Positions 22,472 through 59,956 of a stretch of 64,000 nucleotides of DNA are shown piece after piece. Positions within the stretch are counted from its first letter, which is position 1. The number at the start of each line of letters is the position of its first letter. The position numbers and the translations under genes were made by a program. Below the pieces are notes generated by a model. The model was not told the origin of the DNA. It saw only the letters and a list, made by a program, of their open reading frames with translations, and did no database searches. Source of the DNA: Candidatus Zixiibacteriota bacterium (GTDB lineage Bacteria; Zixibacteria; MSB-5A5; RBG-16-43-9); NCBI GenBank assembly GCA_030692925.1, contig JAUYBY010000023.1, forward strand, positions 22,612 to 86,611, given 5' to 3'.

Positions 22472-23334
22472 CTCAGTATCTGAGAATAAAGCTCCTCGTA
22501 GTTTTTTACCATCGATTCCTTGGAGAATTTCTCCATAACCCTTTTCCTGCCCTCCTCTCCCATCTTTTTTCTTAACTTTTCATCTTTTAGAAGCTGTATT
22601 ATAGTCTCTGCCAACTTCTCCGGCTCGGCAGAAGGGACGAGAAAGCCAGTTTTACCTTCCAGAACCAGCTCCGGATTTCCGCCCACCCTGGTGGCAATTA
22701 CCGGCTTGCCAGAAGCCATCGCTTCCAAGATCGAGATAGAACAACCTTCCAGACGGGAGGATAAGATGAAGACATCCATAAGGTTTAAAAGAGAAGGGAT
22801 GTCATCCCGATGTCCTAAGAGCAAGACCTTGTCCTCCAGTTCCAGTTCAGCCCTGAGTTTAAGCAAATTAGTCTTAAGTTCACCCTCTCCGATTATCAAG
22901 AGCTTAGCCTGAGGAAAAAAAGGGGAGACCTTAGAAAAAGATAGAATCAGAGTGTAATGGTCTTTAACTTCTCTCAGGTTACCTACATTTCCCAGTATAA
23001 GATCTTCCTTTAAGAGGTTTAACTCTTTTCTGAGCTTCTCCTGGTCAAACTTTTTTTCGAATTTGCTGGTGTCGATCCCGTTATAAATAAGCTTGATTTT
23101 TTGAGGGAGCAGTTTCAAGTCTTCTTTAAGCAGATTCTGTATATCTTTGGAGACTGCCACGATCTTCTGGACGTGGCTGATCAGAACCTTATAAGAAAGC
23201 CTCCTGGTCCACTTCCCGAAGATATAATAACGGTTGTGAACTGTGGCGAGCATCGGCATAAAGATAGCCTGAGGTGAACCTGTTAGGTAGAGTTCGGGAG
23301 GCATCATAAACCCAGATATCTGCTGCTGGAACAC
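22468..23334 (-). CDS. Family-1 (GT4) glycosyltransferase lacking about 100 aa of the N-terminal domain
   Basis: C-terminal GT-B domain with EGCSISILEAMASGKPVIAT. The N-terminal Rossmann half is incomplete, and the gene overlaps the upstream ORF by 146 nt. Confidence 0.65.
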   Translation of the reverse strand: MFQQQISGFMMPPELYLTGSPQAIFMPMLATVHNRYYIFGKWTRRLSYKVLISHVQKIVAVSKDIQNLLKEDLKLLPQKIKLIYNGIDTSKFEKKFDQEKLRKELNLLKEDLILGNVGNLREVKDHYTLILSFSKVSPFFPQAKLLIIGEGELKTNLLKLRAELELEDKVLLLGHRDDIPSLLNLMDVFILSSRLEGCSISILEAMASGKPVIATRVGGNPELVLEGKTGFLVPSAEPEKLAETIIQLLKDEKLRKKMGEEGRKRVMEKFSKESMVKNYEELYSQILR

Positions 23335-52340: not shown

Positions 52341-52612
52341 TTGTAGGGGAGGGGCTTGTCCCCTCCCGTCTCACATACCCACGGGCGACCACGAGGGTCG
52401 CCCCTACGTTCTCCCTCTTCTTGCAAAATACAAGGGTAAGGGTGAGGTTCTAAGGTAAAGTCGAGTCTTATAAAGGAGGCGCCGATATTTTTAATGGGTG
52501 GGGACAGCTTGTAGGGACAGGGCTTGTCCCTGTCCGATTGAAAAACAACGGACGGCCACACGGTTCGATAAACTCACCGTCCTGAGAAGTGTAGAAGGAA
52601 GGGTCGCGCTAC
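52341..52612. repeat. Cluster of GC-rich GTAG-headed palindromes (TGTAGGG-GAGGGGcttgtCCCCTCCC; GGGCGACCacgaGGGTCGCCC-CTACG; TGTAGGGACAGGGcttgtCCCTGTCC)
   Basis: ORFs 52270..52458 and 52325..52561 lie inside the repeats and are probably spurious. Confidence 0.65.
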
Positions 52613-55949: not shown

Positions 55950-56200
55950 ACGAGTTATTGCGAGCCCAGTTGGGCGAAGCAATCCGTTTACTCTGAAGGG
56001 ATTGCCGCGTCGTCCTACAGACTCCTCGCAATGACAGACTATGAGAGGCAATTAGCGTTAGCCCCACATTGCCCGCAACATGGGTCAGTCTTCTCGGAAT
56101 GTGGAAAAGCACCCTGTGTCATTCTGAGTTCCGCCGAAGGCGGAACGAAGAATCTCCTTCTTTCGCTGTAGATTCTTCGCTTCGTTCAGAATGACAGGTA
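55950..56200. repeat. Hairpin-rich intergenic block (TGTCATTCTGAG-TTCCGCCgaaGGCGGAA-CGAAGAATC ... GATTCTTCGCTTCGTTCAGAATGACA)
   Basis: Nested inverted repeats; ORFs 56085..56423 and 56119..56316 overlap them and are doubtful. Confidence 0.5.
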
Positions 56201-57269: not shown

Positions 57270-57382
57270 CTTTTCCTCTAAGTAGTTAACTACAAGTTTT
57301 GGAGTATAAAGGTATAGTTTATTATCAAGTTACATAGCCGAGACATGACTTTTAAGAATGTTTTTTTAAAATACAAGTTGGC

Positions 57383-57721
57383 TTTTAATATGTATATATA
57401 CATATTAAAATAGTACATCCATTATACACGATAACATATTAAGCTATTATAGAACAATGAATTAGAATGCTATTATCATAAAATATGGAGCATATTATGT
57501 AGTATATATACTACATAATATGCATAAGATATTTGCGTGTAAAAAAAAATTAAGCAAAAGTTGAAGATTTCTCTTGACAATTTGACTATAATGTATATAT
57601 ACATTATAGTCTTTATCTAATACGGAATCAACTGATCTACTAAGGTGTTAAAACTTAATAACTTAGTCCGGATAACTTAACATAAATGATGGCTTTTATT
57701 ATTGTATATATACAATAATAA
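57383..57721. promoter_or_regulatory. Array of four perfect 26-32-bp palindromes sharing the core GTATATATAC, at 57383-57410, 57491-57522, 57584-57611 and 57696-57721
   Basis: Centres are 110, 91 and 111 bp apart. Palindrome 3 forms the 17-nt spacer of a TTGACT-17-TATAGT promoter (57582-57610), and palindrome 4 lies 20 nt before the AbiEi-like start. Confidence 0.7.
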
Positions 57722-57741
57722 GAAACTTTTACTCCTAATTA

Positions 57742-58628
57742 TGCCACGTATTAAGAAAGAAGATATCTTAAAAATCGCTAAGAACGATATAATAGAATTA
57801 CTTGATAATCTACCTTCTAAAATCCTGAAATATTCTGATCTCGAGAACATTCTATTAATAAACAGAAAAAATTGGCGTGTTACTACTACTACCACCGTCA
57901 ATGAATTCATTTCTTTTCTATTAGACCAAACAAAACTTAAGGAAGCAAAATTTAATTTTCCTTATCGTCCTGAACTAAGGTATATCTGGGGTGAAGTATC
58001 TAATTACGAATTAATTATGTCATTGAGGCCTGACTCCTATTTTACACACTATACTGCTATGTATTTGCATGAAATTACAGAGCAAATTCCAAATACCTTT
58101 TACTTAAATTATGAGCAATCTCCCAAGCGGAAGCATAAAGAGAACTTGGAACAAGATCGAATCGATTCTGCCTTCAAACGTCCAGTTAGGTCATCGAAAA
58201 ACATTGCATTCTACAACAATTTTAAAATATGCCTGCTGAATGGTATGTATACCGGCAAGCTGGGAGTAGTTGAAATTCTTGGGTTACAACGAGAGAAAAT
58301 TCGAGTCACAAATATAGAGAGAACACTTATAGATATTACTGTTAGGCCTGAGTACTCTGGAGGTGTTTTTGAGGTTTTAAAGGCTTTTCAGTTTGCCCAT
58401 GATAACGTATCGATAAACAAGCTGACCGCCATGTTTAAAAAACTGGATTATACTTATCCTTATCACCAAGCTATTGGATTCTATCTTGAGAAGGCAGGCG
58501 TTTATAATCAATCCCAAGTAGATTTACTATGCAAGTTTGATTTTGAGTTCGACTTTTATCTTACTCACCAAATGAAAGAAACCGATTATTCCAAAAAGTG
58601 GCGACTATACTACCCCAAGGGCCTCTAA
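57742..58628 (+). CDS. AbiEi-family (type IV TA / abortive-infection antitoxin-like) transcriptional regulator
   Basis: Start taken at MPRIKKEDIL, the internal Met of ORF 57702..58628. SYFTHYTAMYLHEITEQIP resembles the AbiEi_4 motif (S.ESAL..HGL..Q). The AT content is far higher than in neighbouring genes. Confidence 0.5.
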
Positions 58629-59486
58629 TTCTTTACATTTGTTTGCTACATAATCAAAATAAAAATCGAAATCTCTTAACTCTGTACTTGTTTTAACAGT
58701 ATCTTTTACGGCAGGAAAATCTGAACGATGAAATTCTTTATAGTTTTGTATGTTACCAATAAATTGTAGTGGAACCTTTTTGGCTGTAAATATATTCTTT
58801 AAGAGTTCAGTATTCTCACTCGTTGTGAGATCAATTCCGAAATGTTCAATAGTAATATAGATATCAAAGAAATCCCTTGCCCTTGCTGATCTTGATGGTT
58901 CTGTAACTATGTCAGCGTATTCTGGCATTTGCTGGCAGATAGCTCTCAGCTTTTCTATGACGATCATTTCAGGGGTATAAACATAAATAGTATATCCATC
59001 AATCTCATGCTTCTGTTTTGGGATGCAATACTCAAATTTACTGATATCGATCTTAATTTTTCTTTTTTGTTTATTGCCAACCACTAAAGCATTGCGTCGT
59101 AAAGAATCGATTTTATCAGACAGTCGGGCATAGTCTCCTGACTCTATAATTTTGAACTCAACCTGATATCCTCCCCAAAAACCAGCCATTTCTGGACTGA
59201 TCTTTTCTGGTTTTTCGACAAGGGTAACATCGAAAACCTCGTAGCCTTCTGCTTTAAATGTTTCTTTCAGAATCTTTTGAATTTTGGATTCAATAATAGG
59301 GAGGTCTTCTTGCCTAAACTCTTTCTCAATTGAAAAGTCGAGATCAACTGAGGCGCGGTGTTCGATCTGGTGAATTATATCAAGAGCATTCCCACCCTTC
59401 AAAACCAGCATATCCATTAGGTAGTCATCAGAAAACATAGCGATTATAACAAGCCTTTTGATTTTTCGGAGAAATTCAGTATCCAA
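58605..59486 (-). CDS. AbiEii/AbiGii-family nucleotidyltransferase toxin (DUF1814)
   Basis: LKGGNALDIIHQIEHRASVDLDFS matches the LxGGTAL...R.SxDIDF NTase motif; convergent with the AbiEi-like gene, overlapping it by 24 nt. Confidence 0.75.
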   Translation of the reverse strand: MDTEFLRKIKRLVIIAMFSDDYLMDMLVLKGGNALDIIHQIEHRASVDLDFSIEKEFRQEDLPIIESKIQKILKETFKAEGYEVFDVTLVEKPEKISPEMAGFWGGYQVEFKIIESGDYARLSDKIDSLRRNALVVGNKQKRKIKIDISKFEYCIPKQKHEIDGYTIYVYTPEMIVIEKLRAICQQMPEYADIVTEPSRSARARDFFDIYITIEHFGIDLTTSENTELLKNIFTAKKVPLQFIGNIQNYKEFHRSDFPAVKDTVKTSTELRDFDFYFDYVANKCKELEALGVV

Positions 59487-59573
59487 AGGTTATCCTTTTG
59501 ATTGCTTTTTCTTCAGACCTGAAAGGAGTATCACGGATTCTACTCGGGAGATTAAAAATAACATTCAAAAAAC

Positions 59574-59956
59574 TGGAGGCGGTGGGAATCGAACCCACGT
59601 CCGAAGATAAGAACTAAAGGACTTCTACAGGCTTAGCTTAGTCTTTTTTCCTTCCCGCTTTTGGCAGGAGGGACTTTCGCTCCAGGAAAGACCGACAAGC
59701 AGGTCTAACCCAGAACTATCCCGGTTTTGTTTCGCCCTCTTCCCCCAGGAGATAGAAGAAGGCTATCCTGTTTTTCTCGACGCCTTAGCCCAAACCAACA
59801 GGCAGGCTCAGGTAAGACGAGCTACCTTTTATTAGGCAGCCAATGCATACGAGTATTCGTTTGCATTTAGATTTGTTCCCAATGGATTAACGAGGTTACT
59901 GGGTACCTCGGCCTGCTTTCCTTTACCCTTGATCCCCGTCGAAACCGATCGCCCCC
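59574..59956 (-). ncRNA. ssrA: tmRNA (ssrA), tag peptide (A)ANEYSYALAA
   Basis: 5' end GGGGGCGAUCGGUUUCGACGGGGAUCAAGGG and 3' end GGACGUGGGUUCGAUUCCCACCGCCUCCA (tRNA-Ala-like T-arm and acceptor). Tag ORF GCAAACGAAUACUCGUAUGCAUUGGCUGCCUAAUAA. CCA is not encoded. Confidence 0.9.

Follow-up and report, generated by a model that had tools for sequence, protein, structure and literature searches.

The convergent AbiEi-like and AbiEii genes and the palindromes upstream of the AbiEi-like gene

The 64,000-nt stretch of contig JAUYBY010000023.1 of a Candidatus Zixiibacteriota bacterium (positions 22,612 to 86,611), in the following called the window, contains four perfect palindromes upstream of a gene encoding an AbiEi-like protein, which is followed by a convergent gene for an AbiEii toxin. 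All four palindromes are centered on the 10-bp core GTATATATAC. The distal site P1 (57383-57410) has a length of 28 bp (TTTTAATAT-GTATATATAC-ATATTAAAA). P2 (57490-57523) comprises 34 bp (GCATATTATGTA-GTATATATAC-TACATAATATGC) and P3 (57584-57611) again 28 bp (GACTATAAT-GTATATATAC-ATTATAGTC). The proximal site P4 (57696-57721) is 26 bp long (TTATTATT-GTATATATAC-AATAATAA), and its center lies 32 nt upstream of the start codon. This agrees with the initial annotation of the region 57383-57721, which had described four perfect palindromes with a shared core, and the center spacing of 110, 91, and 111 bp given there was found again as core-to-core distances. The lengths of 26-32 bp, which had also been stated, are correct for P1, P3, and P4, but P2 extends by one further base pair on each side.

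In the 64 kb the core occurs four times, always in the array, whereas dinucleotide shuffles contained it 0.01 times on average and none of 100 shuffles reached four copies. Only three other perfect palindromes of at least 14 bp were found in the window, the longest of them with 16 bp. When the AT-rich array region of 471 bp was subjected to 2000 dinucleotide shuffles, a palindrome of at least 28 bp appeared once. P2 carries the extended core TGTA-GTATATATAC-TACA, which is common to many related loci. As single-stranded DNA, P1 is predicted to fold into a hairpin of -7.1 kcal/mol (z = -4.9) and P2 into one of -12 kcal/mol; the hairpin energies of the window sites range from -6 to -12 kcal/mol and are significant compared with shuffles. 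With 26-34 bp, no spacer, and an easily opened center, the sites have the form of inverted repeats that could be extruded as cruciforms, for which about 26 bp or more are needed. The left flanks of P1 (57366-57391) and P4 (57677-57702) are 81% identical over 26 nt (TTAAMATAMAWGWTGGCTTTTAWTAT), so that these two sites look like a duplicated unit of promoter plus site. Similar duplicated units were observed at the Pedobacter loci L017 and L053.

The AbiEi-like gene is located on the plus strand at 57741-58628, one nucleotide further upstream than the start at 57742 assumed before, and codes for a protein of 295 amino acids. It is predicted to be a winged-helix DNA-binding regulator or antitoxin and is the presumed binder of the palindromes. 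Its earlier designation as AbiEi-like was confirmed by a PADLOC match (E 1.4e-21) and by the fold. The AlphaFold2 model (predicted local distance difference test score 94.4, predicted template modeling score 0.90) shows the two domains of AbiEi, an N-terminal winged helix-turn-helix and a C-terminal AbiEi domain. The best matches of a Foldseek search against the PDB were AbiEi (6y8q_A, E 1.1e-8) and Rv2827c (1zel_A, E 2.8e-6, TMq 0.60), both with a probability of 1.0, followed by MenA1, nucleotidyltransferase, and forkhead-type folds. In Pfam nothing was found at E ≤ 0.01; the C-terminal domain AbiEi_1 is matched at E 0.055 with 14.1 bits, which is below the cut-off of 22.2 bits, and 12 of 18 relatives match it weakly (best E 1.9e-6). 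Neither NCBIfam nor the PDB, searched by sequence or profile, gave a match for the window protein. Based on its modeled fold and its partner gene, the protein is assigned to the AbiEi family, yet it fails the curated sequence models and is not encoded in a bicistronic abiEi-abiEii operon.

The partner gene is located on the minus strand at 58605-59486 and encodes an AbiEii (DUF1814) nucleotidyltransferase toxin (Pfam PF08843, E 5.9e-25; PADLOC AbiEii match). The 3′ ends of both genes overlap in antisense by 24 nt (58605-58628), codon opposite codon, with the C-termini LYYPKGL∗ and LEALGVV∗. An adjacent DUF1814/AbiEii partner is present in 148 related loci; in 147 of the 148 loci where both genes were found they are convergent, and the 3′ overlap is exactly 24 nt in 116 of the 134 loci where it could be measured, across phyla. 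A fixed antisense overlap of this kind suggests that the 3′ ends are coupled or that transcription of the toxin and antitoxin genes interferes. Since the genes face each other, antitoxin-gene transcription would have to run into the toxin gene, which makes a balance acting in cis plausible.

The array and both genes are contained in a low-GC island of 2.3 kb (57270-59570; 23-39% GC compared to about 44% around it). One side of the island is abutted by the 3′ end of the transfer-messenger RNA (tmRNA) gene ssrA (59571-59956, minus strand), and a Gfo/Idh/MocA oxidoreductase gene lies on the other side.

Distribution of the array within the AbiEi-like gene family

The occurrence of the array was analyzed in two ways. 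A DNA-only scan with one genome per species searched for GTATATATAC, a gap of 76-106 nt, and a second GTATATATAC, and therefore needs two exact cores 86-116 bp apart. A second sample was seeded by the protein alone and is blind to the motif; it consists of 80 metagenome loci with 48-63% protein identity, and only here are site counts and spacing free of bias.

The DNA-only scan yielded at least 120 genome loci. These include Acidobacteriota, Planctomycetota, and Myxococcota with 55-70% GC, in whose genomes chance pairs are negligible, since the motif consists of A and T only. Among the matches listed, about 94 of the 120 loci have an AbiEi-like homolog (23-55% identity) adjoining the array and then a convergent AbiEii homolog, as determined with tblastn. 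In most of the loci each core lies inside a perfect palindrome of 22-76 bp, and the arms differ from site to site. All sites are located within about 450 bp upstream of the AbiEi-like start in the 89 analyzable loci, where other perfect palindromes are nearly absent from this region. Long core palindromes adjoin an AbiEi-like gene in 84 of 93 genome loci; a repetitive coding region, locus edges, and what appear to be orphan arrays make up the remaining nine.

Five loci with long core palindromes (L012, L018, L087, L102, and L112) have no detected AbiEi-like gene beside them. The array of L012 adjoins ParE/ParD-like genes and that of L018 the 3′ end of a gene for an ATPase-like protein of 577 amino acids. 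These arrays may be orphaned or attached to other partners.

In the motif-blind sample, the exact core was found in 57 of 67 loci with at least 250 nt of upstream sequence; where this sequence comprised 450 nt or more, 56 of 59 loci had one or more sites, usually two or three. In about 70% of the loci, 4-40 nt separate the center of the proximal site from the start codon downstream of it; as the start codons of related loci were extrapolated from alignments, these positions may err by perhaps 10-30 nt. Upstream of the AbiEii toxin genes, no such site was found in 45 kb from 115 loci. Distances between sites cover 42-255 bp and peak broadly at 100-120 bp, and no significant helical periodicity was detected in this sample (best R 0.216 at 9.8 bp, a value matched by 30% of jittered controls).

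The protein family comprises at least 2455 homologous clusters. More than 12 phyla have the module, and in cultured Bacillus and Burkholderia it is carried by small plasmids. The 9.1-kb plasmid NZ_CP015223.1 of Bacillus subtilis carries two 28-bp sites, and its rep gene is separate. In Burkholderia, the plasmids with the module have a size of 12-14 kb, and B. ubonensis pMSMB1471 (L219) has a 40-bp palindrome at 1419-1458 with the variant core GCATGCATGC. Two inverted repeats are located upstream of this palindrome (1233-1258 and 1343-1370). They have similar arms (GCTAYGCAGCG) and the short, asymmetric centers TT and TGAA, which is the reverse of the usual site pattern and looks more like true hairpins.

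The connection of the array with an AbiEi-like autoregulator, which had been proposed for the window, is supported by the family: the array travels with these genes across phyla and onto plasmids. Homologous abiE loci do carry such arrays, the opposite of the absence that the initial annotation had named as an argument against its proposal. The even spacing seen in the window is not a rule of the family, given the range of distances and the missing periodicity. Likewise, the view that four sites are more than a simple operator could not be upheld, as two or three per locus are usual and four are ordinary for the family.

Viral contigs with matches (n = 16) were considered as a further source of the same system and were rejected, as none of them has an AbiEi-like gene and their cores are all short, at 10-16 bp. 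Two of them (L130, 8698-8755; L133, 1100-1157) carry AGTATATATACT three times at exact 23-bp intervals with a fourth copy 90 bp off. This array is iteron-like and unrelated to the AbiE sites.

Arm pairing, core variants, and promoter placement

The arms were analyzed in 404 distinct sites across the family. Of these sites, 297 (74%) are perfect over at least 22 bp, and palindromes of 28-30 bp are the most frequent class (153 sites). Counted by perfect half-length, 6, 13, 19, 82, and 71 sites have 11, 12, 13, 14, and 15 bp, respectively. Arm complementarity is 0.88-0.92 at positions 6-8 from the center, 0.89-0.95 at positions 9-13, and 0.84 at position 14. Beyond this, pairing falls abruptly, to 0.62 at position 15 and 0.49 at 16, and a tail of 0.40-0.48 extends to about position 21; in a count on 251 sites, the baseline of about 0.27 was reached by about position 25. 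When right arms were shuffled among sites, pairing was only 0.26-0.32.

This pairing is accompanied by little conservation of sequence. At positions 10-13 the entropy is 1.8-2.0 bits, i.e., the sequence is near random. A weak half-site consensus is confined to positions 6-9 beside the core, where R, W, D, and T are preferred, and to position 14 with a preference for T. Most mismatches inside the arms are A:A or T:T pairs at position 7. The wobble-type mismatches G:T and T:G together (22) are about as frequent as A:C and C:A (21), so that a strand bias is absent; another count gave 18 and 18. A gapped comparison of orthologous sites gave 53 compensated double changes and 21 single changes, although some pairs in the bin of 60-80% flank identity may not be true orthologs and a stricter version left 5 pairs. 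Covariation, entropy, and mismatches together indicate that the arms are constrained to pair on both strands over a defined length and are not constrained in sequence. Selection on the dyad itself, as inferred earlier from the four window sites, is thereby supported: the arms of 404 homologous sites covary almost perfectly while their sequence is near random.

Palindromes of at least 40 bp are represented by 31 of the 404 sites and reach 88 bp. The longest are found at L177 (88 bp), L100 (76 and 58 bp), and L041 and L158 (64 bp each), and L030 and L006 also have sites within the range of 44-88 bp. Palindromes of this size hint at inverted duplication centered on the core, by snap-back or template switching.

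It was also considered whether the arms are spacers which match elsewhere in the locus. There were 25 such matches, compared to 10.5 ± 2.8 in a control that was not matched in composition. The matches are mostly partial sites sharing the extended core, and the idea was rejected.

A few lineages of the motif-blind sample have variant cores, namely GTATGCATAC, GTACGCGTAC, TTATATATAA, ATATATATAT, and GCATGCATGC, and the variant is uniform throughout a locus. L209 has GTATGCATAC at three sites, L216 has TTATATATAA at three and L217 has GTACGCGTAC at two sites, and GCATGCATGC is found at L219. The loci with variant cores are L209, L212, L215, L216, L154, L186, L217, and L211, plus L219. Two mixed loci, L145 and L146, combine one GTATGCATAC site with two standard sites. 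A switch of the core across a whole locus is expected if the core is read by a factor encoded at the same locus, for which the winged-helix AbiEi-like protein is the obvious candidate.

Only transitions separate the variants from the main core. In four of the five, purines and pyrimidines still alternate over all ten bases, in TTATATATAA over the inner eight. Pyrimidine-purine steps are the most deformable ones in DNA. The variants retain such a step at every second position, which fits a readout of shape or bending and is consistent with the earlier suggestion of a binder that reads the core plus DNA shape. Asn123 of the window protein is conserved in 91% of the relatives with a standard core and is replaced by Thr in four of seven variant-core lineages; this is a weak lead to a DNA-contacting residue.

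In the window, P3 overlaps promoter-like sequences on both strands, TTGACT-17-TATAGT on the plus strand (57582-57610) and TTGATT-17-TATAAT on the minus strand, both being consensus matches only. P4 overlaps a match TTAACA-17-TATTGT at 57677-57705, and P4 and P1 follow similar flanks with the respective matches TTAACA/TTAAAA-17-TATTGT/TATGTA. The placement was also inspected in related loci. In Bacillota, whose sigma-A promoters are readily recognized, both sites of the B. subtilis plasmid as well as those of Pelagirhabdus show a -35 hexamer and, 16-17 nt further on, a -10 hexamer formed by the left palindrome arm, so that transcription would be predicted to start in the core. At the Halanaerobium locus L009 the proximal site lies in the leader, between the likely promoter and the start codon, and in Pedobacter a Bacteroidota-type TAnnTTTG motif is found just upstream of the palindromes. 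A placement that varies between -10 region, start site, and leader is typical of repressor sites and hard to square with a fixed RNA element.

Regulatory interpretation and comparison with known systems

The array is best read as the cis-regulatory array of a large branch of the AbiE type IV toxin-antitoxin and abortive-infection systems, in which the genes are convergent and overlap by 24 nt. AbiEi of Streptococcus agalactiae and Rv2827c of Mycobacterium tuberculosis repress their own transcription through inverted repeats (PMC7319586). From this parallel, the conserved linkage, and the switching of cores, the palindromes are probably operators through which the AbiEi-like protein represses one or more promoters of its own gene. 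In such a mechanism, the winged-helix protein of the locus would bind each site as a symmetric pair of subunits and would recognize the alternating purine-pyrimidine core (GTATATATAC in the window) and the weak half-site consensus (positions 6-9 and 14). The bound sites would overlap the -10 region, the transcription start, or the leader of its own promoters and in this way lead to self-repression. Arm positions 10-13 would not be read as sequence but would have to be complementary on both strands. The sites would have to pair within each strand, as hairpins or extruded cruciforms helped by a flexible and easily opened center, or to keep an exact dyad. Transcription of the antitoxin gene would probably oppose that of the convergent toxin gene in cis.

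For the symmetry of the unread positions there are two candidate processes, which may both act: selection on pairing or on the dyad, and hairpin-templated strand switching. The abrupt edge at positions 14-15 and a length distribution with a clear peak favor the former, and the perfect examples of 40-88 bp and the pairing tail beyond position 15 suggest the latter. Palindromes could arise long by snap-back at the self-complementary core, erode beyond ±15 bp, and persist inside.

Several points weigh against self-repression at these operators. The link between protein and DNA is drawn from co-occurrence and analogy, and a dimer on duplex DNA does not by itself explain the symmetry of arm positions that are not read. 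The same core is found in Campylobacterota with homologs of only 23-25% protein identity; such persistence is unusual for pairs of operator and repressor that evolve together and may reflect a constraint other than contacts with the protein. A correlation of residues in the putative recognition helix with the core variants was examined and discarded, as the variant lineages are too few and the helix also differs among lineages with the standard core. With regard to pairing, the GC-rich core GTACGCGTAC weakens the idea of the center as an easily melted starting point of a cruciform. Finally, promoter-like matches in the window are not above chance (11 compared to 10.5 ± 3.5 in shuffles). The promoter TTGACT-17-TATAGT whose spacer P3 had been thought to form is present as a sequence, but such matches are no commoner than in shuffled DNA.

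A further possibility, which we put forward only tentatively, is that the sites act as extruded DNA structures, so that cruciform-capable arrays in the antitoxin promoter would form a switch responding to supercoiling or DNA structure. In the boldest form of this idea, junction-resolving or structure-specific nucleases of a phage, or a phage-induced loss of supercoiling, would act on the cruciforms. Transcription of the antitoxin gene would then be turned off, the convergent interference on the toxin gene relieved, and abortive infection triggered. If true, this would explain the free arms that are perfect on both strands, the different arms of each site, the flexible center, and the fixed convergent genes.

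A different account of the arms is that the operator consists of the core only and that the arm symmetry is a functionless by-product of hairpin-templated strand switching, i.e., of quasipalindrome correction or snap-back. It would account for the palindromes of 40 bp and more, which as in L177 and L100 reach far beyond any protein footprint, for the excess pairing at positions 16-21, for the mostly double and symmetric changes at orthologous sites, and for the absence of a strand bias. However, a process free of selection should decay smoothly, whereas pairing falls within two positions from that at 14 to that at 16, half-lengths are sharply peaked at 14-15 bp, and the T/A preference at position 14 marks a functional edge. 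Palindromic operators of similar length, e.g., LexA boxes, are not known to grow symmetric flanks. We therefore regard a pure by-product as rather unlikely. Far less probable is a function as RNA hairpins, either as structures of the leader or 5′-untranslated region or as a small-RNA array, which would control translation or stability or act on the nucleotidyltransferase as an RNA antitoxin or a decoy. Repeated RNAs are a feature of type III toxin-antitoxin systems, and the proximal site often lies between the likely promoter and the start codon, as in Halanaerobium and generally with centers 4-40 nt upstream. AbiEii/MenT toxins are moreover described as acting on RNA 3′ ends (PMC10435456). 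The arms, however, lack a wobble signature, the stems are strictly Watson-Crick on both strands and palindromic through the center, and the -10 hexamers of the Bacillota cases lie in the left arm, so that transcripts would begin inside the palindrome. In a search of Rfam no family matched the region, the only match being the tmRNA. The missing wobble bias and promoters that appear to start inside the sites make the RNA reading unlikely.

The initial annotation had also considered an iteron-like origin or a recombination site of a degraded mobile element next to ssrA. Several repeated sites in an AT-rich region of low GC content are in line with this idea, as is the location beside the 3′ end of a tmRNA gene, where mobile elements classically integrate, but the idea is largely refuted by the comparative data and must be considered highly improbable. 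The array is tied to the AbiEi-like gene and not to ssrA or to genes for replication or integration, as it goes along with this gene in unrelated chromosomal contexts in more than 12 phyla and on plasmids with their own rep. Its sites are dyads with different arms instead of the near-identical direct repeats of an iteron origin. Gene calls and a domain search revealed no integrase, rep, or transposase genes in the island, no att-like direct repeat of the ssrA 3′ end of at least 13 nt was found around it, and dispersed copies are absent from the window. The least probable explanation of all is that of dispersed repeats resembling repetitive extragenic palindromes or miniature inverted-repeat transposable elements, or of bidirectional intrinsic terminators. 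With lenient criteria, a terminator scan picked up P2 (minus strand) and P3 (plus strand), and the hairpin energies are significant as mentioned above. Against this, there are zero copies elsewhere in the 64 kb, the center and not the ends is conserved, long core palindromes nearly always adjoin an AbiEi-like gene, the relatives with high GC content lack T tracts after the stems, and the sites stand in series of two to four upstream of the gene start.

The known system closest in fold is AbiE of Streptococcus agalactiae, whose AbiEi (6Y8Q) is the best fold match with an N-terminal winged helix and a C-terminal AbiEi domain and which has a DUF1814 AbiEii toxin as partner as well. The window protein is 15% identical to it. 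The S. agalactiae operator PabiE consists of inverted repeats in the promoter of the system itself, at which negative autoregulation and DNA bending were described (PMC7319586). That operator is a single pair of 23-bp repeats of defined sequence, 3 bp apart, whereas the loci described here have two to four separate perfect palindromes of commonly 28-30 bp, about 40-250 bp apart, with an invariant 10-bp center and free self-complementary arms. Furthermore, the genes are convergent with an overlap of 24 nt and do not form a bicistronic operon, the arrangement given for known AbiE genes (PMC3985639). The best overall superposition was obtained with Rv2827c of Mycobacterium tuberculosis (1ZEL; TMq 0.60), which also has a length of 295 amino acids. 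Four binding repeats were reported upstream of the Rv2827c gene, some of them overlapping promoter and transcription start (PMC7319586). In contrast to the array of the window, these are 23-bp repeats with a shared consensus that are arranged as two pairs within 131 bp, no covarying arms are described for them, and the toxin gene lies downstream in the same operon.

A conserved short element in a stem of otherwise free sequence but conserved pairing is also known from integron attC sites, the hairpin promoters of phage N4, and cruciform-regulated promoters. An AT-rich center favors extrusion under negative supercoiling. The attC sites are imperfect, flank cassettes, and are read on one strand by the integrase, and the N4 hairpins have stems of 5-7 bp. 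In the AbiE loci, by contrast, neither a recombinase nor a dedicated polymerase is present, the constraint is equal for both strands, and the center itself is palindromic. Plasmid iterons resemble the array in having several protein-binding repeats in AT-rich non-coding DNA, and the spacing near 100 bp in the window is similar too. They are, however, near-identical direct repeats beside rep, whereas dyads with differing arms beside a toxin-antitoxin regulator gene are found here and their spacing is not conserved.

In the searchable open-access literature, no description was found of the motif GTATATATAC, of such arrays, or of the convergent AbiEi/AbiEii arrangement, although they may have been reported elsewhere; in this sense, the AbiE branch with the palindrome array is previously uncharacterized. 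AbiE/DUF1814 modules are among the commonest toxin-antitoxin and phage-defense systems. The convergent pair, an unexpected gene layout, offers an entry point to the question of how a toxin and its antitoxin are kept in balance. Few natural signatures of selection on the self-complementarity of DNA, as opposed to its sequence, are as clear as that of the cis-element, which also provides an easily mutated test case for cruciform or hairpin DNA in bacterial gene control. In addition, the DNA signature can be used to annotate modules whose regulator, like that of the window, stays below the cut-offs of Pfam and NCBIfam.

Two further repeats were observed in the window. A GC-rich direct repeat of 22 nt, TTGTAGGGGAGGGGCTTGTCCC, occurs in an intergenic region at 52341-52362 and 52509-52530, with copies that are 86% identical and 168 bp apart. 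The intergenic region after it contains a 15-nt inverted repeat at 56141-56184. Both are possibly extragenic repeat elements.

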